Assembly (NCBI GenBank): GCA_964540825.1
Contig: CAZINT010000001.1
Location: forward strand, 142,735-206,734
DNA length: 64,000 bases
From: an uncultured Gammaproteobacteria bacterium
Lineage (GTDB): Bacteria > Patescibacteriota > Patescibacteriia > Magasanikbacterales > GWA2-37-8
Direction of reading: 5' to 3'
Shown here: in pieces, positions 25,545 to 56,687 of the stretch
Layout: every line of letters starts with the position of its first letter
Position numbering within the stretch: the stretch's first letter is position 1
The notes under the pieces: generated by a model
Databases searched by the model: none
What the model saw: only the letters and a program-made list of their open reading frames with translations
What the model was told of the DNA's origin: nothing
Translations under genes and position numbers: made by a program

Positions 25545-26162
25545 ATGAAAAAACTATTGTTTGGACTTTTTGCTGCGGTTCTCATTGGAGGCGCAGGCTG
25601 CAGTAGTACCCCGTTGCCGGTCGAACCAGCCCAGCCCCCGGTTACTACGCCAGAAACACCGACTACAACGCCTGCTGCTGATTTGCAGGTGTACAAGAAT
25701 GTCCAATACAACTTTGAATTTTCCTATCCTAAGGGTTTAGGATTTGCGGCGCCAAATTATGCCAATATGGATAATAAGATTGTCCAGGTACAACTCTCTG
25801 CCGATGCTTACCCTGGCACAAATTTTCGAGATGGCGGCGTGGCTGTAAGTTCGGGCTCTGCCGATATCCTTAATGGCTGTTTGGCCCAAAGCCCAATTGC
25901 TGGCGGAAAAGGATTTAAGAATAAAGTCACTATTAACGGTGTAGAGTTTTACACCGATGAAGGTATTGATGCTGGGGCTGGGAATTTCTATGTTTCCAAG
26001 GCTTACCGCACGTTCCACAACTCGCAGTGTTTTGAAATTGTGGAAACAATTCATACTACCAATGTTGCCAACTACCCTGATGGGACGGTCAGTGAAGTCG
26101 TTAAAGAACCAATTTGGGCTGAGCTTAATAGTATTGTGCAAAGTTTCAAATTTAATTCTTAA
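25545..26162 (+). CDS. hypothetical lipoprotein (family member 2, tandem paralog)
   Basis: Lipobox IGGAGC; same conserved skeleton as 24925..25509. Confidence 0.55.
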   Translation: MKKLLFGLFAAVLIGGAGCSSTPLPVEPAQPPVTTPETPTTTPAADLQVYKNVQYNFEFSYPKGLGFAAPNYANMDNKIVQVQLSADAYPGTNFRDGGVAVSSGSADILNGCLAQSPIAGGKGFKNKVTINGVEFYTDEGIDAGAGNFYVSKAYRTFHNSQCFEIVETIHTTNVANYPDGTVSEVVKEPIWAELNSIVQSFKFNS

Positions 26163-26172
26163 AGAGTGTTTT

Positions 26173-26439
26173 ATGGTAACCACCTGTGAACACGTTTCAG
26201 AAATTAAAGCTGTAACGCCGGTTACTCCGGATGGTTGTACTGATTGTCTCAAGACCGGAGACGAATGGGTGGCACTTCGCTTGTGCCTATCCTGCGGAAA
26301 TGTTGGTTGCTGTGATTCTTCCAAAAATAAACACGCCACCAAACATTTTGAAGCAAGTGGTCACCCCATTATGCAAGCCTATCAAGAAGGTAAAGAATGG
26401 AAATGGTGTTATGTAGACAAGACGTATATCGAAGTATAA
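26173..26439 (+). CDS. UBP-type zinc-finger (zf-UBP) domain protein
   Basis: 88 aa from MVTTCEH: CEH..C..C..W.ALRLCLSCGNVGCC..H..H..KW.C pattern. Confidence 0.65.
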   Translation: MVTTCEHVSEIKAVTPVTPDGCTDCLKTGDEWVALRLCLSCGNVGCCDSSKNKHATKHFEASGHPIMQAYQEGKEWKWCYVDKTYIEV

Positions 26440-28313: not shown

Positions 28314-29639
28314 ATGCAACAGAAAAAAACTATTTTATTTGTTACCAGACTTTTAACCGGATTATTTTTTGGTTTGTTAATTGCGATTATTGGAGTGCGT
28401 GTTACGAGGGCACAGGTTTTGTTTGAAGGCCTGGGACCTGAAGATGGTCATATTAGTATTTCTACTAATCTCGTAGGGGTTGGTCCTGCTACAGATAATA
28501 CAACAACTACTTTAACAATTATTGACAACGATGCCAGCTCAACATATTCTCAGAGTATTAAAGTGGGAGGTCCTCAGTTAGAATTTGATGCTAGTTCAGG
28601 ACATTACACGTTAAAAGCAGAGCCGTTGCTGGGATATGAGGTTACTTACGGAGGTGAAGAGGAGGATGATGAAGATTGTGATAGATCAGGTCTTATTGAA
28701 GTTGTTGAGGGTGGTGCGGTTTTTTGCACAATAACTCAAAGTTTTGTTGGATTTCCAGATCCGCCTCCAACCCCAACAACCGGCAACCTACGCATCAATG
28801 AAGTTATCATTAACGACAATGGTGACACTAAAACAGTTGCCGATTTTCCTTTTGATGTAGTTATTGGTGCATCGAGTTCAACATATGATGGCGCTGCTTC
28901 AACTACCATTGCGGATGTACAGGGCGGTACGACTTTCCGTGTAGAAGTAACAGTGCCGGATAGTTATAGCAAAACGTTGGAAGGTTGTTCTGGAACAATT
29001 GTCGCCGGCGAAGAAAGTGTTTGTACGATTACGCTTGATGATCAAGAATTGGTGTTGTCAAATATTTCTACCGAAGTCCTTGGGTCAACGTCGGTTCGTT
29101 TGAACTGGACAACAAGCCATTCGGCGACCTCGCGCGTGGTGTACGACACGGTATCGCACAGCGCTACCGGCACCTTGCCGCTCTATGGCTATGCTTTGGG
29201 CACTACAGAAGACAGTACCCTCACCCTCGAACATCATGTTACGATTACTGATCTAACTCCAGACACGACATACTTCTTGCGCGCCGTATCGCACGGCTCG
29301 CCCGAAGTAACCAGCGCTGAAGTTTCGGCGACCACGGGTTCGGCTGCTGTGGGCGGCGGTAATAATTTTAGCGTTGGGCCAGGCACTAGCGGGGGAGTGG
29401 CGGCTGCACCAGCTCCGGTAGTAATTCCTCCTTCTGCACCAGAACCGCCTCAAGCTGTTTTAGGAATAAAAATTGAAGACCCGATCGCAGTACCAGCTCC
29501 CGTTGCCCCGCAGGCTGTGCTTGGGTTTAAGACGCTGCCCGTAGCGGGTGGGGGAGATGCGAGTGCTATGCGCTTTGTAGCGGGGCTTTTGATGGTGTAT
29601 GGAAGTGTACTCGTTGTTAAGGCGCGCATGAGTGCGTAA
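28314..29639 (+). CDS. cell-surface protein with FN3-like domain and C-terminal LPVAG sorting signal
   Basis: N-terminal signal/TM. C-terminus KTLPVAGGG + hydrophobic FVAGLLMVYGSVLVV + KAR tail. Directly downstream of the sortase. Confidence 0.65.
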   Translation: MQQKKTILFVTRLLTGLFFGLLIAIIGVRVTRAQVLFEGLGPEDGHISISTNLVGVGPATDNTTTTLTIIDNDASSTYSQSIKVGGPQLEFDASSGHYTLKAEPLLGYEVTYGGEEEDDEDCDRSGLIEVVEGGAVFCTITQSFVGFPDPPPTPTTGNLRINEVIINDNGDTKTVADFPFDVVIGASSSTYDGAASTTIADVQGGTTFRVEVTVPDSYSKTLEGCSGTIVAGEESVCTITLDDQELVLSNISTEVLGSTSVRLNWTTSHSATSRVVYDTVSHSATGTLPLYGYALGTTEDSTLTLEHHVTITDLTPDTTYFLRAVSHGSPEVTSAEVSATTGSAAVGGGNNFSVGPGTSGGVAAAPAPVVIPPSAPEPPQAVLGIKIEDPIAVPAPVAPQAVLGFKTLPVAGGGDASAMRFVAGLLMVYGSVLVVKARMSA

Positions 29640-29657
29640 TTAAATTTTATATTTTAA

Positions 29658-29690
29658 AAAACAATCAGTACATACTGATTGTTTTTATTT
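29658..29690 (+). terminator. intrinsic terminator of surface protein gene
   Basis: AACAATCAGTA-cat-TACTGATTGTT followed by TTTTATTTT. Confidence 0.6.
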
Positions 29691-29744
29691 TACTAATACC
29701 AGAGTTATAACTAATTAACTTTCCTTTCCACTCCTTTGTGCGGA

Positions 29745-30150
29745 CAAAGGGTGGAGCCCAAAGCCGCCGAGCTACTGTCCGCCGTTGGTACTGCCATCGG
29801 TTCGTTCTCACTGCAGCACTAAGACTCGTTTCACTCAAACAATTAGTGTCGCTGCAAAAGCACCGTTCAAACTCGCTGGGCCAGTACGGGTCGTGTCCAA
29901 GTGCTCGGAGAGCCTAGCGAAGTACGAGGCCAACAATTCGCTTCCCGAGCGCTTGAGCGTTGAGCTCGGCAGTTCGAGATGAATTGGAACGTTCCGAAGG
30001 ACACCGGCCACGGTCGCGTCAAAGCGACATTGGCCGGTGAGTGACAATGAATCTGAACTGGCCGCGAAATGATCATCAGCTCGGCAGTTTTGGGCTCCAC
30101 CTTTTTGCTGTCAAAAAGGTGGTAAAGAAAGTTTGTGCGCTAAACTTTTT
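29745..30150 (+). repeat. GC-rich noncoding element A (candidate structured ncRNA); 3' half repeated, inverted, at 55076..55264
   Basis: No credible ORF. 29749-29759 is complementary to 30092-30101. Hairpins at 30004-30037 and 30097-30122. Ends in hairpin 30128-30148 followed by a T-run. ~75–80% identity to the minus strand of 55076-55264. Confidence 0.55.
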
Positions 30151-30152
30151 AA

Positions 30153-30181
30153 TTGACAGTAAAGGAGATTCTCGCTATACT
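30153..30181 (+). promoter_or_regulatory. sigma70-like promoter TTGACA-17-TATACT
   Basis: Consensus -35 (30153-30158) and near-consensus -10 (30176-30181), upstream of the CAP-domain gene. Confidence 0.55.
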
Positions 30182-30222
30182 TGCCTGTTTCGAAGAAACA
30201 AAAAATAGTATATACTATCGCC

Positions 30223-31482
30223 ATGAAACGCGCTTTCAAAAAATATTTTATCCCTCATGCGGAAAACAATTATCATCCGCATATTTTGCATACCAAGCGA
30301 GCGATCGCGTACTCGCTGCTGTTTATTGGCATCAAAGCTTTTGTTGTTGGTGCGATTTTACTCGTACCGCTGCCTGCATTTGTCGCGCCTGATGTTTTGG
30401 CTGCGGAACAAAGTCGGCTGGTCAGTTTGATAAATAATTTGCGTGCTACCAAAGACCGTCCGGCACTCAAGACCCAAAGCATTCTCAATCGTTCGGCCGA
30501 AATCAAGGCAGAGGACATGGCGACGCAGCAATATTTTAGTCACACCGGGCCAGGCAATCATGACCTCCAATATTTTTTGAAACAAGCCGGATATAGGTAT
30601 CATATTGCGGGCGAAAATTTGGCAATGGGTTTTTTTAACGCCGATGAAGTACTGGCAGCGTGGATCAAAAGCCCGACACATTATAAAAATTTGATTGATA
30701 GCGATTATGCAGAGCTCGGCACCAGTATGGTGAGCGGGTTGTATACCGATATCCCGACTGCCTATGCTGTGGCGCATTTTGGATCACCGGAAAGCGGCTC
30801 AGCTAGTGCAGCAGCTACCGTTCCTGATACAAAAGTAGCTATTGCCGCCGCCCGCCCGATCGCGGCAACCACTACGCCGCCTGTTGCGGGTAGTGCTCAA
30901 AAAACTCCAAATCCAAAACCGCCAGCGTCGCCAAAAATTCCGACACCGGTGGCGTTTGCCCCAAGCAAGCTCGGATACGACCCTAATCGCTCCGCAGTTG
31001 CCTGGAAAGCAGTCGAAGGGGGAGTGGAGGTTCGCGTTACCGCGGCGATCAGCGGGTCTGTACAGCAAGCGAGCGTCGAATTTTCAGACAAAACACTACT
31101 CCTTGCACCGACCGACACAGCTGGTGTTTTTTCTGGCACCACCGTACTCTCAACGTCACCGAACGAACTCTTTCGCGTTATCGTTCCGCCGACGATTAGT
31201 ATAGAAGCCGTTGGCGGCGAAAAGTTGGTCGACGCTATTGCCTGGCAAAATCCGGCAATCGTCTCGCCCACACCCCTAACGCGATACCTGACTGCAGCTA
31301 AGAGCGTACCTTTGGCTGCTAGTTTGTTTACTTTTTCCCGCAGTATTTATATTGGCTTTTTAATCATTTTTGGTCTTTCCTTGGTTGGCCTTGTGGCTAT
31401 CGAAATCCGCAAGCAACACCCTCATATTATTGTGCAAACCCTTGGTTTAATTGGTCTTTTGATGGTTTTAGTTTTGATATAA
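30223..31482 (+). CDS. CAP/SCP/PR-1 domain protein with Pro/Ala-rich linker and C-terminal TM helices
   Basis: N-terminal TM. CAP motifs in ..HTGPGN..GENLAMGF..LAAWIKSPTHYKNLIDSDYAELG. Alternative TTG start at 30181. Confidence 0.7.
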   Translation: MKRAFKKYFIPHAENNYHPHILHTKRAIAYSLLFIGIKAFVVGAILLVPLPAFVAPDVLAAEQSRLVSLINNLRATKDRPALKTQSILNRSAEIKAEDMATQQYFSHTGPGNHDLQYFLKQAGYRYHIAGENLAMGFFNADEVLAAWIKSPTHYKNLIDSDYAELGTSMVSGLYTDIPTAYAVAHFGSPESGSASAAATVPDTKVAIAAARPIAATTTPPVAGSAQKTPNPKPPASPKIPTPVAFAPSKLGYDPNRSAVAWKAVEGGVEVRVTAAISGSVQQASVEFSDKTLLLAPTDTAGVFSGTTVLSTSPNELFRVIVPPTISIEAVGGEKLVDAIAWQNPAIVSPTPLTRYLTAAKSVPLAASLFTFSRSIYIGFLIIFGLSLVGLVAIEIRKQHPHIIVQTLGLIGLLMVLVLI

Positions 31483-39201: not shown

Positions 39202-41253
39202 ATGCCTGTTAAACCCATGCGCGCTAGCAAGACGCCAACTCGCTCCCAAGTGAAGTCTCGATTGGCTGGTATTTTGATTCTCGTTGTTTTTTGTGCAATT
39301 GTTGCGGCTCCGAGTGTGGCTAATAAAGGAATAGATTGGGTAAACACCAAAGCCAACCTTGGTTTACCGCGCTTACCGGATAAAGGGTATAATTTAGGCC
39401 TTGATCTGCAAGGCGGCGCACATTTAATTTATCAGGCAAAGACCGACGCTATCCCCGAGGCTGATAAAGCCAGTTCCGTGGAAGGTGTGCGTGATGTTAT
39501 TGAACGCCGTGTGCGCGGCGGCCTTGGAGTAGCTGAACCGCTCGTCCAGACAACGAAAGTTGGCGGTGATTATCGTATTATTGTTGAGCTTCCGGGTGTT
39601 ACGGATGTAAATGAGGCAATCAAGAGTATCGGTGAAACACCGGTTTTGGAATTTAAAGAGGCAAATAACGAACCGCCCCGCGAGCTTACTGCCGAGGAAA
39701 CTAAACAATTAACAGCATTTAATAAAGCCGCCGACACCAAGGCAAAAGAAGCGCTGAGAGCCGTGCAAAAAGGGATGAATTTTGCCGAAGCCGCCACAAA
39801 ATATTCTGAAGACGACACGACTAAGGCAGTGGGCGGTGATCTTGGTTTTATTGACGACACGCTCTATCCAGAAATTTTTGCTTGGGCAAAATCTCATAAG
39901 ATTAATGAAGTAAGTTCAGCTCCGATTAGCGGCTCGACAGGACTTAATATTGTTAAGAAGTTAGCCGAAAAAGATGGCGAAAAAGAAGTAGCTGCTTCCC
40001 ATCTACTTATTTGTTATAAAGGCGCTGAACGCTGCGACAACCCGCAGTATCAGACCAAAGAAGAAGCCCTCGCTAAAATTCAGGAAATTCGCAAAACAAT
40101 TACTGCCAAAAATTTTGCCGAAATGGTTAAGAAATATTCTACTGAACCAGGAGCGGCAACCAGCGGAGGTGTACTTGGTACCTTTAAAAAAGGAACTATG
40201 GTCACAGCGTTTGAAAATGCTGTTTGGGATCAGCCGGTTGGTACTATTACCGAGCCGGTCGAAACGCAGTTTGGCTATCATTTGATCTATAAAACAGGGG
40301 AGACGATCAGTAAGCAATATCAAGTTGCCCGTATTTTGGTAAAAACTAAAACCAAAGCGGATATCGTTCCTCCGGCTGAACAGTGGAAATCGAGCGGCCT
40401 TACCGGTAAGCAGCTTAAGCGTGCCGAAGTTACTCAGGATCAGCGCACTGGTGAAATTCAGGTCAGTTTGAACTTTGATGACGCAGGGACGAAATTATTC
40501 GGTGAAATTACCGGACGAAATATCGGTAAATCAGTAGCGGTATTTTTGGATGGTGAAATTATTTCGGCTCCGGTAGTGAATGCTGCAATTACGACAGGTA
40601 GCGCGGTTATTACCGGTGGATTTAGCCTTAGCGATGCCAAGTTACTTGCGCAACGTCTTAATTCCGGTGCGCTTCCTGTACCAGTTGAACTCTTAAGTCA
40701 GCAAACTGTGGACGCTACGCTCGGTGCTGATTCGCTTACGAAGAGTTTCCGCGCAGGTATCTATGGACTTATTGCGGTTATGCTGTTTATGATTGTGTAC
40801 TACCGCTTACCGGGTCTTTTATCGGTATTTTCATTGGCATTTTACGCGCTTCTGAGCATGGCTGTCTTTAGGCTGATTGGCGTTACGCTAACGCTGTCTG
40901 GTATAGCCGGGTTTATTTTGTCGATTGGTATGGCGGTTGACGCGAACGTGCTTGTGTTTGAGCGCCTAAAAGAAGAATTAATCGGCGGCCGTACGCTTAA
41001 AGCCGCAACCGAAGAAGCCTTCTTACGCTCCTGGCCATCGATTCGCGATAGCCATATTACCGCGCTTATCAGCTGCGTGTTCTTGATCTGGTTTGGCAGC
41101 GGCTTTATTCAAGGTTTTGCCGTTATCTTGGCTGTTGGTACGCTTATTAACCTGTTCACTGCGATTACCGTTACTCGTACGATCATGCGTTTCATTTTTG
41201 ACCATATTAATGAAAAGGCGAATGCTTTATTCTTAGGCCACCGAGCACAATAG
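39202..41253 (+). CDS. secD: protein translocase subunit SecD with two parvulin-type PPIase domains inserted in the periplasmic head
   Basis: SecD signatures GLDLQGG and C-terminal 6-TM domain (GMAVDANVLVFERLKEE). Residues ~155–395 carry two PpiC/parvulin domains (..KYSEDDTTKAVGGDLGFI.. and ..HLLI..KKYSTEPGAATSGGVLGTF..MVTAFE..TQFGYHLIYK). Confidence 0.85.
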   Translation: MPVKPMRASKTPTRSQVKSRLAGILILVVFCAIVAAPSVANKGIDWVNTKANLGLPRLPDKGYNLGLDLQGGAHLIYQAKTDAIPEADKASSVEGVRDVIERRVRGGLGVAEPLVQTTKVGGDYRIIVELPGVTDVNEAIKSIGETPVLEFKEANNEPPRELTAEETKQLTAFNKAADTKAKEALRAVQKGMNFAEAATKYSEDDTTKAVGGDLGFIDDTLYPEIFAWAKSHKINEVSSAPISGSTGLNIVKKLAEKDGEKEVAASHLLICYKGAERCDNPQYQTKEEALAKIQEIRKTITAKNFAEMVKKYSTEPGAATSGGVLGTFKKGTMVTAFENAVWDQPVGTITEPVETQFGYHLIYKTGETISKQYQVARILVKTKTKADIVPPAEQWKSSGLTGKQLKRAEVTQDQRTGEIQVSLNFDDAGTKLFGEITGRNIGKSVAVFLDGEIISAPVVNAAITTGSAVITGGFSLSDAKLLAQRLNSGALPVPVELLSQQTVDATLGADSLTKSFRAGIYGLIAVMLFMIVYYRLPGLLSVFSLAFYALLSMAVFRLIGVTLTLSGIAGFILSIGMAVDANVLVFERLKEELIGGRTLKAATEEAFLRSWPSIRDSHITALISCVFLIWFGSGFIQGFAVILAVGTLINLFTAITVTRTIMRFIFDHINEKANALFLGHRAQ

Positions 41254-44980: not shown

Positions 44981-46237
44981 CTACCGTACGGTGGGTAGCT
45001 CTTTAAGTGAAGTTGTAAACCGCTGAGAGGTATGGTCTTTGCGCATACTCCACTCTTTTTTGATCCCACTCCCAGCAATAAACAGGGTGTCTTTGCCAAA
45101 GTGACGATTCACTCGGTCAACCGCTTGCATGAGGCTATTGTTTTTTTCAAATGCGACCGGAGTAAAGAGATTTTGTTGCACTGTTGTCTCGGGTAAAAGC
45201 CCAACGCAGCACACGCCAGCTTTAAAGTAGCGATACCCATCGCGGTATACGGCATCAACCAGCTCCATAGCTTTGCTTACAAGGTACGGCGTGTATGAAG
45301 AAGCCACCGGTAGGTGAAAGCCTTTGCTGCCAGTATATTTTTTATCAAGGTTGAAACGGTTGGTTCGGATGTAAATATAAAAATACGAGGTGACAAGGCC
45401 TTCTTCGCGTAATTTTTCAGCTGCTCGTTCGGTATACGTGGCTACAGCCTCTTTGAGCGCGTCTTTAGTGGTGACGGCCTTGCCAAATGAACGCGTACAC
45501 ATAATTCCTTTTTTGGGCTCAGGATCATCGTCCAATTTGAAGCAGGGGATGCCGCGCAGTTCGTAGGCAATATGAAGGCCGGTAATACTAAGGTGTTTTC
45601 TGATCCAGGCGTCCGAGTGTTCGAGGAGTTGTCCGGCAGTAGTAACCCCAAGCGCCTTTAATTTTTTCGTGGATTTCCGGCCAATTCCCCAAAGTTCTCC
45701 AACGGGTAAATCATGGAGAATAAAGCTAACGTCTTCGTGCGTGATATCGCAGACACCATTAAAGTGGGGGTATTTTTTGGCCATATGGTTGGCGACTTTC
45801 GCGAGGACCTTGGTGCTGGCGATGCCAATCGATACGGGAATGCGCGTCCACTGCCGAACGGTTTGACGAATGGTTTGACCGAGCGCTTCATTACTCGTAC
45901 CTCCGGGCAACTTTAGAAAAGCTTCGTCGATCGAATAGACTTCGAGTTCATCTGTAAACTCCTCAAGTGTCGTCATGACCCGCTGTGACAAGTCGCCGTA
46001 CAGTGAAAAATTTGAGGAAAAGACTTTAATATTATTTTTTTGAACAATATCTTTGTATTTAAAGTATGGTGCTCCCATAGGAATACCTAAGTCTTTTACT
46101 TCTTTGGAACGTGAAATAAAACAGCCGTCGTTATTCGACAAAACGGCTACCGGTACTTTTTCAAGAGCAGGCTGAAACGCTCGTTCACACGAGACAAAAA
46201 AATTATTGCAATCCACCAGGGCAAAGACTTCGGGCAC
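44981..46237 (-). CDS. umuC: Y-family translesion DNA polymerase (UmuC-like)
   Basis: FALVDCNNFFVSCERAF..VAVLSNNDGCFISRS N-terminal palm motifs. Confidence 0.8.
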   Translation of the reverse strand: MPEVFALVDCNNFFVSCERAFQPALEKVPVAVLSNNDGCFISRSKEVKDLGIPMGAPYFKYKDIVQKNNIKVFSSNFSLYGDLSQRVMTTLEEFTDELEVYSIDEAFLKLPGGTSNEALGQTIRQTVRQWTRIPVSIGIASTKVLAKVANHMAKKYPHFNGVCDITHEDVSFILHDLPVGELWGIGRKSTKKLKALGVTTAGQLLEHSDAWIRKHLSITGLHIAYELRGIPCFKLDDDPEPKKGIMCTRSFGKAVTTKDALKEAVATYTERAAEKLREEGLVTSYFYIYIRTNRFNLDKKYTGSKGFHLPVASSYTPYLVSKAMELVDAVYRDGYRYFKAGVCCVGLLPETTVQQNLFTPVAFEKNNSLMQAVDRVNRHFGKDTLFIAGSGIKKEWSMRKDHTSQRFTTSLKELPTVR

Positions 46238-46242
46238 AGAGG

Positions 46243-46680
46243 TTATTTTACTTGACGAACCACACCGGTCACGACGCCGAGAATGGTAAAATTGTCGTCG
46301 GGATTAATAAGAAGTGGGGCATAGTCCGGGTTTTCGGCTTTAAGCCAGGTTTTGCCTTTATCCTGCCAAAAGCGTTTCACGAGAAATTCGCCTTCTACAG
46401 CCGCCACTACAATTTTATTGTGCACGGGGCGAAGCGATGCGTCAATAACGAGCAAATCGCCGTCGCAAATAGCTGCTCCCTCCATGGAAGACCCGCTGAC
46501 GCGAACCAGATACGTCGCTGGGCGATTGTGGATGAGGAGGTCATTAAGATCAATCGCATCTTCCACATAATCATCAGCGGGGGACGGAAAACCCGCGGAG
46601 AGCGGGCTGGAGTAGAGGGGGAGTGTGCTGGTTTTACTGGTGCGGGGAAGAAAAATTTTAGTTGCTTTTGATAACTCCAT
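46243..46680 (-). CDS. umuD: S24 peptidase (UmuD/LexA C-terminal domain-like, no HTH)
   Basis: VRVSGSSMEGAAICDGDLLVID..KRF, with Ser-Lys dyad. Gap of 5 nt to umuC. Confidence 0.75.
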   Translation of the reverse strand: MELSKATKIFLPRTSKTSTLPLYSSPLSAGFPSPADDYVEDAIDLNDLLIHNRPATYLVRVSGSSMEGAAICDGDLLVIDASLRPVHNKIVVAAVEGEFLVKRFWQDKGKTWLKAENPDYAPLLINPDDNFTILGVVTGVVRQVK

Positions 46681-50871: not shown

Positions 50872-53424
50872 TTAGAGCGTCGCTTCGCTAAAATCAATAT
50901 CTTCGCCTTTTGGTGAACCGAGTTGCGCCCGATCCATAATTTCGGCATTAACGATTTCTCGCGGGCGACCGTACTTGAGGCGGGACAGTTCTTTGATCGC
51001 GGCTGCTAGCTCTTTGTTACCTTCTTTAGGCCCGTATGTCAACATATTAAATGGTTTCGCAGCAGTATTATCAATGAGGAGTTTGATGTAGGCAGTGTAC
51101 TGCTCTACGTTAATCAGGTCATACGCACCAAATACCGGAGCAAATTCTTTGGCTAAGACTTCGGCGTCTTCCACACCAATACGGAAACTGACGAGTGTGC
51201 CGGCATTACCCAGCACCGCATCGCGCACCGTGGTTTTGCCTTTGTTGTCTTCGAGCTGTTTCATGTATTGGTGAGCAATAATCAGTTCCAGGCGGTATTT
51301 ACGGGCTTCAGAAAGAATAGTAGCGATTGAATCGGTAATAAAGTTTTGGAACTCATCGATATAGAGAAAGAAATCATGGCGCTGGTCCTCGGGGAGTGAA
51401 GCGCGCTCAAGAGCGGCCATTTGGAGTTTGCTGACAATAATCATACCCATGAGGTTGGCGTTAATTTCACCCACCAAACCTTTGGCGAGATTAACCAGTA
51501 AGATTTTTTTGCCATCCATGACTTCGCGGAAATTAAAGCCCGATTTTGATTGGCCAATAATGTTGCGAACCATTTCGTTTTCCACAAAGCGGCCGACTTT
51601 GGAGATAAGGTAACCGAGCATTTCTGATTTATGAAAATCAGACGTTTTGGCCATTTCTTTGTCCCAATACGCGCGAACGACCGGATCTTTAAGTTTTTTC
51701 TTCCATTGGTTGACGAACGTGTCGTCACTAAACATGCGCGGAATTTCGGCGATTGTGCCGGGGGCTTCAAGGTCTGACATAAGCGTCAACATAACGTTGC
51801 GCATGTTATGCTCAAACATCGGGCCGATCATGGACGGGTCAGTAACCATTTTATAGAAAATGGAAATCATTTCCTGGGTAGCAAAATCTTTTTGCTCTTC
51901 GCTTTTTACTTCCAGCATGTTGAGCCCGATCGGGCGTTCAATATCAGATGGGTTGAAATAAATAACGTCGTCAGCGCGTTCCTTAGGGACATGCTGCAAG
52001 ACGTATTCGACGAAGTCGCCGTGCGGATCAATAACACAAACACCTTCGCCGTTTTGGATATCTTGTACAGCCAAATTCTGGATAAAGACCGATTTACCGC
52101 CGCCAGATTTACCAATGACATACAGGTGGCGGCGCCTATCAGATACTTTCATTTTGACGAGGGTTTCTTCACCGCGGTAGACGGCGCGGCCAAGTAGGAG
52201 GCCTTCTTTTGGCATGTTGGCCGGCGGGGGAGCCTTGCGAGCGCCGAGCCAATTAATGTGTGGTGTTTCCGTGTGCGGAACAGGCAGGTGCCAAAAACTG
52301 GCCATTTCTTCTGTGTTCGCAACCATATAATATCCTTCCCGCATGGAGCGATAGATGGATTCTTGGATAAGCGACGTTTGGCGGCGGGGGATGGCAGCGC
52401 CAAAGGAATTGCCGTAGCGGTAGATGTTGTACTGACTAAATGAATTAATGATGTTTTCGAGGTTAAGCTGGGCCTTTTCTTTGCTGCTGGCTGAACTAAT
52501 CAGGCGGATGGTCATCTCAAGTCCGCCGTGACTGATTTTTTCTTCCATGTTTTTGACCATTTCTTCTTCCATCTGGGTCAAGGCATATTTTTCGGATGGC
52601 TTACTGGGATCATGTTTTTTAGGAAAAAGAAGTTTGCCTAATTTCGAGATGCTGTGGAAAAAAGCGATGCGGTTGGCAACATTTTCAAATTTTTCTCCAC
52701 TGCGAATTTCACGAATGATGTGGACGGCTTCATGTCGCCATTTACCGCTCGCGGGACGAACTACGTATTGAATCATCGCGCCTTCATCTTCGGCGATTTT
52801 ACTGAGCGGATTAAGAATGGATAGGAGCGGGTCAGCATCCATTTTTTTGTACGTTTTGAAAGGAAAAATGGATTTATGCTTGAACCATAGATAAGCGCCG
52901 ACAACGTGACTGGTCGGTTTGAAAATATTGTAGTCGGTTTCTTCGGTAATTTCGGCGTGCGGGTATTGTGCGTTGATTTGTTGTTCGATTAAATCCCGGA
53001 TTTTGTCCGGGACCGCGACGTAGAAAGAAATTTTACTGTCTTTAACGACGATTTCAAACGCAATGTGGTCGTTGCGTCCGCGGAGCCAGGGACCAAGCCC
53101 TTTTTCTTTGTGTAAACCGGCAATAGCTGAAAAAAAGGTGTCAGCAACAGCAACTTGTTCACGGATTTGGTTAATGGTGTCTTCGTTGCCGCCTTCTTGT
53201 TTTTCGCTTTTACGTTCCTTGGGAACGCGAATAAGAAAGACTGTACGGTGAAAAGCCTTGCCCGCTTTATTTTTGGCATGGAGCACGCCGCGGATCGTAA
53301 AAAGAATTGCTAAAAGAATAGCCGCTACAATTGCAGCGAAAAAAATAGCTGTTGCTACGGGGTTCGCGAGAATGCTTGATAGCGCTTCGCGGGTAAAGTC
53401 TAGAAAGGCAGTAAAAATTTCCAT
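50872..53424 (-). CDS. membrane-anchored P-loop ATPase of the HerA/FtsK/TraD (DUF87-type) superfamily with large N-terminal domain
   Basis: N-terminal TMs. N-domain (aa 1–430) is paralogous to 42549..44021. Walker A HLYVIGKSGGGKS followed by VCVIDPHGDF. Walker B FFLYIDEFQNF, then LIIAHQY. Confidence 0.7.
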   Translation of the reverse strand: MEIFTAFLDFTREALSSILANPVATAIFFAAIVAAILLAILFTIRGVLHAKNKAGKAFHRTVFLIRVPKERKSEKQEGGNEDTINQIREQVAVADTFFSAIAGLHKEKGLGPWLRGRNDHIAFEIVVKDSKISFYVAVPDKIRDLIEQQINAQYPHAEITEETDYNIFKPTSHVVGAYLWFKHKSIFPFKTYKKMDADPLLSILNPLSKIAEDEGAMIQYVVRPASGKWRHEAVHIIREIRSGEKFENVANRIAFFHSISKLGKLLFPKKHDPSKPSEKYALTQMEEEMVKNMEEKISHGGLEMTIRLISSASSKEKAQLNLENIINSFSQYNIYRYGNSFGAAIPRRQTSLIQESIYRSMREGYYMVANTEEMASFWHLPVPHTETPHINWLGARKAPPPANMPKEGLLLGRAVYRGEETLVKMKVSDRRRHLYVIGKSGGGKSVFIQNLAVQDIQNGEGVCVIDPHGDFVEYVLQHVPKERADDVIYFNPSDIERPIGLNMLEVKSEEQKDFATQEMISIFYKMVTDPSMIGPMFEHNMRNVMLTLMSDLEAPGTIAEIPRMFSDDTFVNQWKKKLKDPVVRAYWDKEMAKTSDFHKSEMLGYLISKVGRFVENEMVRNIIGQSKSGFNFREVMDGKKILLVNLAKGLVGEINANLMGMIIVSKLQMAALERASLPEDQRHDFFLYIDEFQNFITDSIATILSEARKYRLELIIAHQYMKQLEDNKGKTTVRDAVLGNAGTLVSFRIGVEDAEVLAKEFAPVFGAYDLINVEQYTAYIKLLIDNTAAKPFNMLTYGPKEGNKELAAAIKELSRLKYGRPREIVNAEIMDRAQLGSPKGEDIDFSEATL

Positions 53425-54034: not shown

Positions 54035-54961
54035 ATGAAATATTCTTCTGTTATTGAGCACAAAGGATTAGTCTGGATGAACGTTACCAGACAGTCTGAA
54101 AAAGAGCTTCAAGGGGTCCAAAAGAAGTTTGATTTGCAGGCGCAAGATGTTGAAGAATGTAAGCCCCATTTTCAACGCCCCAAACTGGTAAAACGTGACC
54201 ACTATTATTTTATCGTTCTCCATTTTCCGGTGTTCGATCGCAAAACCAGGCGTCTTGGGTTTACTGAGGTCGATTTTTTCCTCAGCCAGAACTATGTCGT
54301 AACCATTCACGATAATTCAATTGAATCGTTGGGTGCATTTTTGGAAATGTGTTCTAAAGAAGCTGGAAAGAAACACGTGTTTAAAGGTACGGCAGCACAT
54401 TTATTCCTGGAGATGCTGCGGCATATTTGCGATAGTATTTTCCCGAGTCTTCAGCATATTAATGAAGATATTAATGTTGTCGACGCTAACTTGTTTGCTC
54501 AAAAAATTCCCAACGAAAAGATGGCTAAAGAAGTTTTGCGGCTCAAAACAAATATTGTTAATTTCCGCCGGGCGATGCAAGGGCACCGAACAGTTTTGGA
54601 GCGCTTGGTTTTATATGGTGGTCGCGAATTAGATTTGTTTTCGTATCAGGCGGCGATTAATTCGCTGAAAGAAGAAATTAACGAAATTTGGCACATGCTG
54701 GATAATCAGAAAGATAGTATTAACGCGCTTCACGAAACGAATGAGTCGCTTATTAACTTGCGCACTAATGAAGTCATGCGCACGTTGACGGTTATTTCGG
54801 TGGTTACTTTCCCTTTGACGCTCATGGCGGCTTTGTTTGCCATTGCGGCACCAGATAACCCATTTGTGCATAATAAGAATGGCTTTTTGCTTATCGTTAC
54901 GGTTCTTTTGTGGGTAGCGGTATTTATGATTGTTTTCTTTAAGAAAAGGAAATGGATTTAG
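54035..54961 (+). CDS. CorA/MIT superfamily divalent cation transporter-like protein (GMN motif not conserved)
   Basis: Cytoplasmic domain plus two C-terminal TMs, as in CorA. The canonical YGMNF is replaced by ..AIAAPDNPF. Confidence 0.55.
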   Translation: MKYSSVIEHKGLVWMNVTRQSEKELQGVQKKFDLQAQDVEECKPHFQRPKLVKRDHYYFIVLHFPVFDRKTRRLGFTEVDFFLSQNYVVTIHDNSIESLGAFLEMCSKEAGKKHVFKGTAAHLFLEMLRHICDSIFPSLQHINEDINVVDANLFAQKIPNEKMAKEVLRLKTNIVNFRRAMQGHRTVLERLVLYGGRELDLFSYQAAINSLKEEINEIWHMLDNQKDSINALHETNESLINLRTNEVMRTLTVISVVTFPLTLMAALFAIAAPDNPFVHNKNGFLLIVTVLLWVAVFMIVFFKKRKWI

Positions 54962-54964
54962 AAT

Positions 54965-55008
54965 AAAAAAGAGCCTTTTGATTATCAAGAGGCTCTTTTT
55001 TATTTGTC
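54965..55008. terminator. bidirectional intrinsic terminator
   Basis: AAAAAAGAGCCTTTTGAT-tatc-AAGAGGCTCTTTTTTATTT. Confidence 0.6.
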
Positions 55009-55019
55009 ATTTTTTTATT

Positions 55020-55264
55020 AGCGTGTCATTCCTGCGCAGGCGGGAACCCAGGGTTCCAGGCGCATACCTAGCGCGTTACCTTTTTGGCAGCAAAAAGGTA
55101 ACCGAAAAACTGCCGAGCTGATGATCATTTCGCGGCCAGTTCGGACTCATCAATGCTCAACTGCCAATGTTCCTGCGCCGGAACCGTGGCAGTTGTCCTG
55201 CGGAACGCACTGATTCATCTCGAACTGCCTGGCTCAACGCTCAAGCGCTCGGAAGGCGAAGCGA
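55020..55264 (-). repeat. GC-rich noncoding element B, inverted partial copy of element A
   Basis: Core 55076-55264 (minus strand) aligns with 29939-30122 (plus). Hairpins at 55076-55102 and 55159-55194. Extra palindromes CCTGCGCAGG (55031-40) and GAACCCaGGGTTC (55044-56). Abuts the cysS stop codon. Confidence 0.55.
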
Positions 55265-55271
55265 GCGTTTG

Positions 55272-56687
55272 TTATTTTGACCGAACTTTAGTACCGTCTT
55301 TGGTATCTTCTACTTCGTAACCCAAACTTTCGATTTCTTGGCGGAGACGATCGCTTTCAGGCCAGTTTTTCGACGTCCGAGCCTCGTCACGTCGTTTGAT
55401 TAATTCTTGAATATTTTTTGGAACCGGTTGAGATTGAATATTTTCTAATTCTGCAACTGATTTTTCAATTTTTAAACCAAGGATCTTATCAAATTTATAA
55501 ATCGTTTCAGTTGTTAGTCTGGAAGCTTTTAGCTTTTCCCATAAATAAGCGATTGTACCAGGGGTATCAAGGTCGTTATTAATACAATTAAGAAATCCTT
55601 CTTCAGCTATTTTTTGCTCCTTGAGCATCACGTCTTCTTCATGAATATAATCATTTTTTTCTTCTAGTTTTTTTAATTTTTTAACCGATTCGTAAAGATG
55701 GTTTAATCCATTTTCAGCCGCCTTTAAAGCCTCCCATGAAAAACTCAGTTGCTTGCGGTAGTGTGCTTGGAGCAAAAAATACCGGTAGGCGAGGGGATTG
55801 ATACCTTTGTCTTTAATGGTTTGGAGGGTAATAAAATTCTCTCCCGATTTAGCCATCTTGTCATTGTCGATGAGCAAAAATTCACCATGCAGCCAATAGT
55901 TGGCGAGTGGCTTGCCTTCCGCGGCTTCGCTTTGGGCGATTTCGTTGGTATGGTGGACGGGAATGTGGTCGATACCGCCACAGTGGATATCGAAGGGTTG
56001 GCCGAGGTATTTGGTGGCCATGGCTGAGCATTCGATATGCCAGCCGGGGAAACCGATCCCCCAGGGGCTGTCCCATTCCATTTGACGCTTAGTATCGTAA
56101 TCGGAAAACTTCCAGAGGGCAAAATCGGTAGCATTCTTTTTTTCGCCAATGTCGACACGGGCACCGGCTTGGAGGTGTTTGAGATCAAGTTTGGCGAGCT
56201 TGCCGTAGTCGGAGAGTCGGCTGGTGTCAAAATAAATACCGTCAGGCGTGCGATAGGTAAAACCTTTGTGTTCAAGTTTTTGGATTACAGCGATTTGCTC
56301 AGGGATATGGTCGGTTGCTTTGCACCAGGTGGTCGGTTCAATGATATTGAGGGCTGCCAGGTCATCTTTAAAGGCGACGGTGTACGCGGCGGCGATGTCC
56401 CAAGCACTCTTGCCTTCACGGGCAGCGCCCTTTTCCATTTTGTCTATTCCGTCGTCAGCGTCGTCGGTGAGGTGTCCAACGTCGGTAATATTCATGACGT
56501 GATTAACCGTGAAGCCGTTGTACGTTAAAACACGTTTAAGGATGTCTTCAAAAACATAGGTGCGTAAGTTGCCAATGTGGGCATAGTTATAGACAGTCGG
56601 GCCGCAGGTATACAAACTAACCGCTTGTCGTACAAGCGGGTTAAATGGTTTTTTCTCTCGATCCATTGTGTTGTAGAGTTCAAGCAT
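55272..56687 (-). CDS. cysS: cysteine--tRNA ligase
   Basis: HIGH ([17 protein letters not shown]), KMSKS (KMAKSGENF) and zinc-binding Cys/His. Confidence 0.9.

Follow-up and report, generated by a model that had tools for sequence, protein, structure and literature searches.

Introduction

Several families of structured repeats have been described in the intergenic DNA of bacteria. bcr1 is an element of ~155 bp that is transcribed, whose structure is kept by compensatory changes, and whose position varies between related strains (PMC3184786). ERIC and other repeats are found at the 3' ends of genes and influence the stability of mRNA (PMC3184786). In REPINs, a palindromic unit is arranged as an inverted doublet; these elements are mobilized by a RAYT transposase present in single copy and are maintained through vertical inheritance (PMC3116915; bioRxiv 10.1101/2021.07.10.451892). 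Here, an element that may be of this general kind is described from a 64-kb stretch of contig CAZINT010000001.1 (the window; all positions are counted from its first base). The non-coding DNA between a surface-protein gene and a CAP-domain protein gene in the window holds two modules of ~185 nt that form an inverted, head-to-head doublet; module A is read on the minus and module B on the plus strand. A third module stands alone (the solo module, or copy 2) downstream of cysS, the gene for a cysteinyl-tRNA synthetase of 471 aa. A first-pass annotation, made from the letters of the sequence, had read the doublet as one long structured non-coding RNA (ncRNA).

An inverted doublet of related modules

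The intergenic span that contains the doublet measures 583 nt, from the stop codon of the surface-protein gene to the ATG of the CAP-domain gene at 30223. When the region was compared with the rest of the window by blastn, only the right half of the doublet found a partner (55078-55260 on the minus strand against 29937-30120, 82% over 184 nt). A covariance model was then built from three sequences, and with its filters off it found exactly three modules in the window: B, copy 2, and the diverged A. Copy 2 lies between cysS and corA. Module B and copy 2 are 81.4% identical; many of their 34 differences are compensatory, and a block of 37 nt is shared unchanged. Module A is 55% identical to module B and 49–55% identical to the family members overall. 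Its 5' leader (TTCGC) is conserved and reaches to about 29922, and ~38 nt separate the P1 helices of modules A and B. The family was previously uncatalogued and is lineage-restricted, being seen so far in this bacterium and a sister species. Homologs of the cysteinyl-tRNA synthetase and of the CAP protein assign the bacterium to Candidatus Magasanikbacteria or its vicinity, within the Patescibacteria (candidate phyla radiation). Unitig contigs of the same organism (Logan; the starts of L041 and L043) break inside the 37-nt block common to module B and copy 2, which independently marks the block as repeated.

The stretch from 29717 to 30133 is an imperfect palindrome, whose arms of 53–57 nt show 72% complementarity and each contain a hairpin of their own. 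The GC content of 29745-30150 is 53.4%, against a window average of 45.6%. The whole region folds better than shuffled sequences on both strands (z = -7.7 for the plus and -6.2 for the minus strand), and none of 100 shuffles was as good. In the minimum-energy fold of the plus strand, the two arms form a closing helix of 44 pairs. The promoter scan found no promoter inside the doublet or upstream of any module, and the terminator scan found no canonical terminator after a module's 3' hairpin.

Fold of the module

The members share one fold. Its base is a 6-bp P1 helix (CCGAGC/GCUCGG), followed by a long rod with fixed internal loops that include two tandem G·A motifs. The apex is a three-way arrangement with a 3-bp hairpin (UCC-GNA-GGA) and a 38-nt hairpin that carries a conserved 2x2 internal loop. 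At the 3' end, a single-stranded U-rich linker (CAGUUUU) leads to a terminal hairpin of 11–12 bp. Module B and copy 2 adopt the identical fold, and their internal loops and tandem G·A motifs are invariant although the two paralogs are only 81% identical. Module A keeps P1, the linker, the terminal hairpin, and both apical hairpins, the latter with entirely different sequences; its fold is weaker than that of the other copies (z = -1.3). The ends of the module are better conserved than its interior, module A included, and the two rod arms of a single module are conserved asymmetrically.

RNAalifold on three sequences gave 62 pairs, eight of them with compensatory changes. When module A was added, 95.5% of the cells in the four-sequence alignment paired standardly and 23 of the 62 pairs changed on both sides, counts that are inflated since the alignment was fitted to the structure of the model. 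Among the controls for these double-sided changes, none of 500 shuffles reached the value, and slid controls gave one to three such pairs. In all four sequences, the named strand folds 4–15 kcal/mol better than its complement. These findings indicate that the secondary structure of the module is, as far as the alignments can tell, selected and strand-specific.

Conservation and insertion

The genome, metagenome, and viral scans required exact matches of 15–24 bases. A 22-mer of the conserved core was found in one of 185,579 species-representative genomes, the metagenome-assembled genome CAZECR01 (GCA_964510495.1) of the sister species, and the covariance model found one ortholog there. This genome carries the label "uncultured Gammaproteobacteria bacterium", which is probably wrong, as in genes and synteny it matches a Magasanikbacteria-like Patescibacterium. 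The ortholog corresponds to the solo module, lies at the same site 13 nt past cysS, and is 97.8% identical to it. In windows of 50 nt, copy 2 and its ortholog agree at 96–100%, against ~82% in the flanking coding DNA of cysS and corA and 50–64% in the adjacent intergenic DNA. The solo module is the best-conserved stretch in 7 kb, in its unpaired as well as its paired bases. This degree of conservation indicates that it is under purifying selection, with very recent homogenization as the alternative explanation.

The region downstream of cysS was also compared in four more distant relatives, whose cysteinyl-tRNA synthetases are 68–76% identical; no module was found there, and other inserts occur instead. 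The space between cysS and corA (54962-55271 in the window) is a hotspot of variation, which holds the solo module in the window and in the sister species. In the relatives, it is occupied by a GC-rich 251-aa open reading frame (ORF) with no Pfam match (L033, 3851-4864) or by two small ORFs, one of them DUF6899 (L038, 5408-6000), and in one case corA has been lost from this position (L036, 5378-5559).

The first-pass annotation had proposed a comparison of the doublet with related genomes, and at the locus itself no conservation was found. The orthologous intergenic region lacks the doublet in the sister species (L039), in GCA_964634875.1 (L042; 147 nt), and in a third relative (L046-L049; 128 nt). 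Because it is missing from the same place in three relatives, the doublet can be considered a lineage-specific insertion, which on this comparison took place in this lineage only and without a target-site duplication. The right insertion junction is the exact end of the module B hairpin, and AAAGAAAGTTTG beyond it is native flank. No 5-bp direct repeats were found at the ends of the element. Since modules A and B are only 55% identical, a recent duplication in place is not indicated; the doublet would have come as a composite or in two steps. The sister assembly contains a run of 100 N at 4821-4920 of L039 with the same 54 nt, including the CAP-gene promoter, on both sides. This run suggests two overlapping contigs that were left unmerged, and not a loss of sequence.

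Coding potential and known RNA families

The first-pass annotation saw no credible ORF in the region, and this holds: no sense-strand frame of the modules stays open beyond 30 codons, and when the 34 differences that separate module B from copy 2 are sorted by codon phase, the counts are 13, 12, and 9, without periodicity. The antisense frames are open for 45–62 codons. The longest antisense ORF, of 77 aa, had no relative among 5.8 billion proteins. A small peptide (MIISSAV...) was considered and rejected because a 1-nt indel shifts the frame between the paralogs.

It had also seen no RNase P RNA, transfer-messenger RNA (tmRNA), signal recognition particle (SRP) RNA, or 6S RNA. Rfam 15, which covers RNase P RNA, SRP RNA, 6S, HEARO, OLE, ROOL, GOLLD, raiA, and ribozymes, agreed with this. 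At the gathering threshold, it reported only five tRNAs in the whole window, and at E <= 10, it reported only noise or terminator matches in 29600-30300 and 54950-55350. A tmRNA was suggested by the 3'-end-like ...GGGCUCCACC and was rejected: ARAGORN found none, the would-be third acceptor pair is A-U where G·U is expected, and there is no T-loop. Readings by eye as a kink-turn, a C/D box, SRP helix 8, or the 6S central bubble did not hold. A template and variable repeat of a diversity-generating retroelement was also rejected, as the differences are not adenine-specific and the copy lies outside coding sequence. The positions of all modules and of their flanking signals are collected in Table 1.

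Table 1. Modules, their helices, and adjoining features (positions in the window)
Feature	Position	Strand	Remarks
Surface protein, 441 aa	28314-29639		fn3/purple-acid-phosphatase-N domain; adjoins sortase gene; sortase substrate
Intrinsic terminator of upstream fn3/sortase-substrate gene	29657-29686 + T-run	+	From terminator scan; also in sister species; outside the element
Left arm of the closing helix	29717-29773		Complement of module A 3' end (P1 3' strand, linker, terminal hairpin) plus ~11 nt of flank
Module A	29728-29914	-	Diverged member; 30 bits, E ~3e-5, model positions 1-183; no plus-strand match
Module A, P1	29903-29908/29767-29772	-	
Module A, small hairpin	29853-29862	-	
Module A, long hairpin	29813-29852	-	
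Module A, linker	29754-29766	-	
Module A, terminal hairpin	29729-29753	-	One base bulged
Central spacer and 5' leaders	29923-29938		Between the head-to-head modules; centre of the ~395-nt imperfect palindrome
Module B	29939-30122	+	Intact member; 208 bits with the covariance model; fold z = -4.9
Module B, P1	29945-29950/30079-30084	+	
Module B, rod	29954-29990/30041-30075	+	
Module B, small hairpin	29993-30001	+	
Module B, long hairpin	30002-30039	+	Conserved 2x2 internal loop
Module B, linker	30085-30097	+	
Module B, terminal hairpin	30098-30121	+	
Right arm of the closing helix	30078-30133		Module B 3' end plus ~11 nt of native flank AAAGAAAGTT; flank also in element-free sister species
CAP-domain gene promoter	30153-30181	+	TTGACA-17-TATACT; 11 of 12 consensus positions; kept in sister species; 30 nt past module B end
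Solo module (copy 2)	55076-55258	-	13 nt past cysS stop codon, same strand as cysS; 221 bits
Bidirectional terminator beyond copy 2	about 54961-55005		

Comparison with described repeats

The bcr1 elements (Group A bcr repeats of the Bacillus cereus group) resemble the modules in that they are intergenic, ~150–190 nt long, and non-coding, with compensatory changes and a presence that varies between close relatives. Compensatory changes that keep the structure were likewise found in the modules. Unlike them, bcr1 has 5-bp direct repeats at its ends, many copies, and a two-stem cruciform, while the modules have no duplicated target, number three, and combine a rod and a three-way apex with a 3' hairpin set apart from them. 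In sequence the two are not similar, and one module copy is very strongly conserved across species.

The doublet is similar to a REPIN in consisting of two inverted units that are able to form one long hairpin, and a solo singlet exists too. Vertical inheritance and persistence of copies are a further likeness. In contrast, REPINs number tens to hundreds of copies against three modules in ~78 kb, and a REP unit of ~20–35 nt, short and in high copy number, differs from a module of ~185 nt with an elaborate fold of its own. The two units of the doublet are only 55% identical, and no RAYT gene was found among the ~59 ORFs of the window.

Palindromes of the MITE type (miniature inverted-repeat transposable elements), such as ERIC, Correia, and RUP, likewise form rods from imperfect palindromes. 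They lie in intergenic DNA that is transcribed, often where a gene has its 3' end, and the stability of mRNA is altered by some of them (PMC3184786). Terminal inverted repeats and duplications of the target site (TA for ERIC) are features of MITEs, and no such duplication accompanies the module. Inverted repeats were found in the doublet, namely its arms of 53–57 nt at 72%, which are the homologous 3' ends of two modules. The module is also unlike a MITE in its asymmetrically conserved rod arms, fixed internal loops, and the extra linker and hairpin outside the rod. The omega-RNAs of TnpB and IscB, and HEARO, share with the module a structured RNA of ~150–250 nt that ends at a transposon boundary marked by a hairpin. 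Unlike them, the module has no adjacent nuclease gene, no Rfam match, and an unconserved flank where the guide would be.

A proposed structured intergenic repeat

The reading we favour, at about an even chance, is that the family is a non-autonomous structured repeat, which would be co-transcribed with its neighbours, act in cis through the rod and 3' hairpin, and be recognized by sequence by some factor that may mobilize it via its hairpin ends. Duplication or mobilization of the modules would depend on a factor whose gene lies elsewhere and which possibly acts on single-stranded hairpin ends. Their transcription would be passive, within the 3' region of a neighbouring mRNA, where the rod and 3' hairpin would serve in cis as a processing or stability element. 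As there is no terminator between cysS and copy 2, co-transcription of copy 2 with cysS is expected. The basal rod, linker, and hairpin are almost completely conserved in sequence, which suggests that a putative protein recognizes them sequence-specifically. The closing helix of the doublet would result incidentally from the inverted arrangement, and its formation would require transcription of one strand through both modules. Nothing indicates such a transcript; a strong terminator precedes the element, which lacks its own promoter. The likeness to known repeats would be one of function and not of membership: assignment to the MITEs fails on the lack of a target duplication, and assignment to the REP units fails on size.

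A number of results weigh against this reading. A further ~14 kb of the same genome contained no extra copies, which leaves three modules in ~78 kb, so that "repeat family" here means few copies. The modules are five to eight times longer than REP units. Pfam scans of the ~59 ORFs in the window found no transposase, integrase, reverse transcriptase, RAYT-like protein, TnpB, or IscB. No target-site duplication was found at the flanks ...CTTTCCTTT / element / TAAAGAAAGTT..., for which the empty site in the sister species reads TTCCTTGATTTAAAAGAAAG. Beyond the sister species, no copy was found among the species-representative genomes by the exact 22-mer, a search that would miss distant members. 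In the Joint Genome Institute (JGI) metagenomes, an exact 20-mer, which would equally miss such members, gave 29 matches that were all due to chance: 26 are one coding gene, apparently surA-like as read from the peptide RREMIISRV, and three are unrelated. Three exact-match scans of viral collections, with the same limit, gave nothing or only chance 17-mers, and blastn against phage and plasmid collections, by which distant members would be missed, found no copy. The 97.8% identity at the orthologous site exceeds what a passive or selfish repeat needs and fits a host-functional RNA at least as well. Finally, RNA structure and single-stranded DNA structure are indistinguishable in the present data, and the inflation of the four-sequence pair counts has to be borne in mind.

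Alternative explanations

The main rival is a small paralogous family of genes for trans-acting ncRNAs, for example RNAs that serve as scaffold or partner to a protein encoded at another place, in which copy 2 would be made from the cysS 3' untranslated region and module B would be a recently acquired paralog. Such genes would account for the very strong purifying selection on unpaired and paired bases of the solo copy, for the invariance of the loops, the tandem G·A motifs, and the 37-nt block between paralogs that are 81% identical, for the strong covariation and strand-specific folding, and for the apparently low copy number. However, no module has a promoter upstream or a canonical terminator past its 3' hairpin, and the short distance between the P1 helices of the head-to-head doublet leaves no room for promoters. 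Module A is degenerate, as its z value shows, the gene context differs between the copies, and the absence of the doublet from the sister species makes it dispensable. This explanation is less likely than the structured repeat.

With a similar likelihood, the module may be a new functional class of structured RNA specific to one lineage of Magasanikbacteria, within the candidate phyla radiation. A dedicated protein would recognize the invariant rod, G·A loops, linker, and hairpin; it might belong to an RNA-guided or RNA-scaffolded system or to a new hairpin-dependent mobilization machinery, and the variable apical hairpins would carry copy-specific information.

It is unlikely that the modules are the ends or remnants of a single-strand transposon (HUH, IS200/IS605-type), with the doublet being a palindrome-associated (PATE-like) derivative or the modules being orphan scaffolds similar to omega-RNAs. 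The hairpins do lie exactly at the element boundaries, one with a bulged base; the insertion left no target-site duplication; folding is strand-specific; and the ends show higher conservation than the interior, in module A too. The ends of IS200/IS605 elements are in direct orientation, and the end hairpins of the doublet are inverted. Moreover, tnpA, tnpB, and iscB are missing from the 64 kb, where the neighbours are the surface protein, the CAP protein, cysS, and corA, and neither HEARO nor any other Rfam family matched. The DNA just 3' of the module, in the position of a guide, is not conserved between the species, and the orthologous copy is under selection, unlike a remnant.

The first-pass annotation itself is to be weighed next: it proposed one plus-strand ncRNA of ~375–400 nt, closed over ~350 nt by a long-range helix and ended by its own terminator at 30128-30148. 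Parts of this description stand. The region is non-coding, has an evidently selected structure, and matches no known RNA family; the nested hairpins are present (30002-30039 and 30097-30122), as are the terminator of the upstream surface-protein gene and the consensus promoter of the next gene. The long-range complementarity is real and larger than described, its exact stretch being 10 nt (29750-29759/30092-30101) and not 11. The mutually exclusive folds likewise exist, each 3' end forming its own hairpin or pairing with its inverted twin. Both these folds and the closing helix arise because two homologous module 3' ends lie inverted. If the plus strand were transcribed across the region, the palindromic fold with its 44 pairs would reach -179 kcal/mol, against -149 for the independent halves, and its z value of -7.7 also speaks for a single RNA.

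Other points of that description did not survive. The 3' half stands alone and fully conserved at cysS without the 5' half, as a module of ~185 nt, and the 5' half fits the family model on the minus strand only. The supposed terminator has one G-C pair and -5.9 kcal/mol, was not called by the terminator scan, and is flank that is native to the element-free sister species; being weak and native, it is not the element's own. The GC content had been put at ~57%, above the measured value. The position behind a strong terminator, without an own promoter, and the absence at the same locus in three relatives also disagree with a single ncRNA gene. Therefore, the single-transcript model has been largely refuted, and a lone plus-strand RNA of this length with one closing helix is very improbable.

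An invertible DNA switch, flipped by a site-specific recombinase beside genes for surface and secreted proteins, has even less probability. Inverted repeats of 53–57 nt with a 10-bp exact core do flank ~300 bp between the surface-protein gene and the secreted CAP gene. However, the window contains no recombinase gene, the segment contains no promoter, the conserved promoter of the downstream gene lies outside the segment, and elsewhere there is a homologous module, standing alone, that shows RNA-type covariation. The least credible explanation, which can in practice be dismissed, is a short protein-coding gene or pseudogene; only the open antisense frames speak for it, and against it stand the missing codon periodicity, the 1-nt indel between the paralogs, the lack of relatives of the 77-aa ORF, and the compensatory substitutions within helices.

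Other features in and around the window

Short GC-rich imperfect palindromes of the type GTCATT...AATGAC adjoin or replace modules at ~55022-55060 of the window (minus strand), at 4691-4723 of L039, and at ~5455-5480 of L036. The palindrome downstream of copy 2 reads CCTGGGTTCCCGCCTGCGCAGGAATGACA, and that of the sister species, GTCATTGCGAGGCGCGGAGCGACGAAGCAATCC, is found in the intergenic region where the window has the doublet. They look like a separate family of small intergenic repeats.

Several protein-coding genes also deserve mention. SecD (39202-41253, plus strand, 683 aa) carries a PPIC-type peptidyl-prolyl isomerase domain (residues ~249–364) inserted after its N-terminal P1 segment and ahead of the P1 head, so that, unusually, a translocon subunit is fused with a foldase. 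A umuD/umuC-like pair (44981-46680, minus strand) encodes an S24 peptidase and a Y-family polymerase with a DUF4113 tail, which is an SOS-type mutagenesis module in a reduced genome. An 850-aa protein (50872-53424, minus strand) resembles a type IV secretion coupling protein (TrwB/TraG, DUF87) and is kept beside the cysS/pilus gene cluster in several relatives (L033, L036). A bacterial protein with a zf-UBP domain, a zinc finger of the ubiquitin-hydrolase type, is encoded at 25957-26439 (plus strand) and kept in the sister species (L039, 1015-1281).

Significance

The conservation of the solo module between the two species is far stricter than that of the neighbouring essential genes, and the inverted pair was inserted recently. 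REPIN-type elements owe their interest to just such a combination of constraint at the host level with mobility. The genomes of bacteria in the candidate phyla radiation are very small, and to our knowledge almost nothing has been reported on their non-coding RNAs or repeats. If the module is simply a structured repeat, it still corrects the first reading of this locus and explains why assemblies break at these sites. If it is a functional RNA or the substrate of a new mobilization system, it would open a tractable way into this kind of biology in bacteria that are uncultivated.

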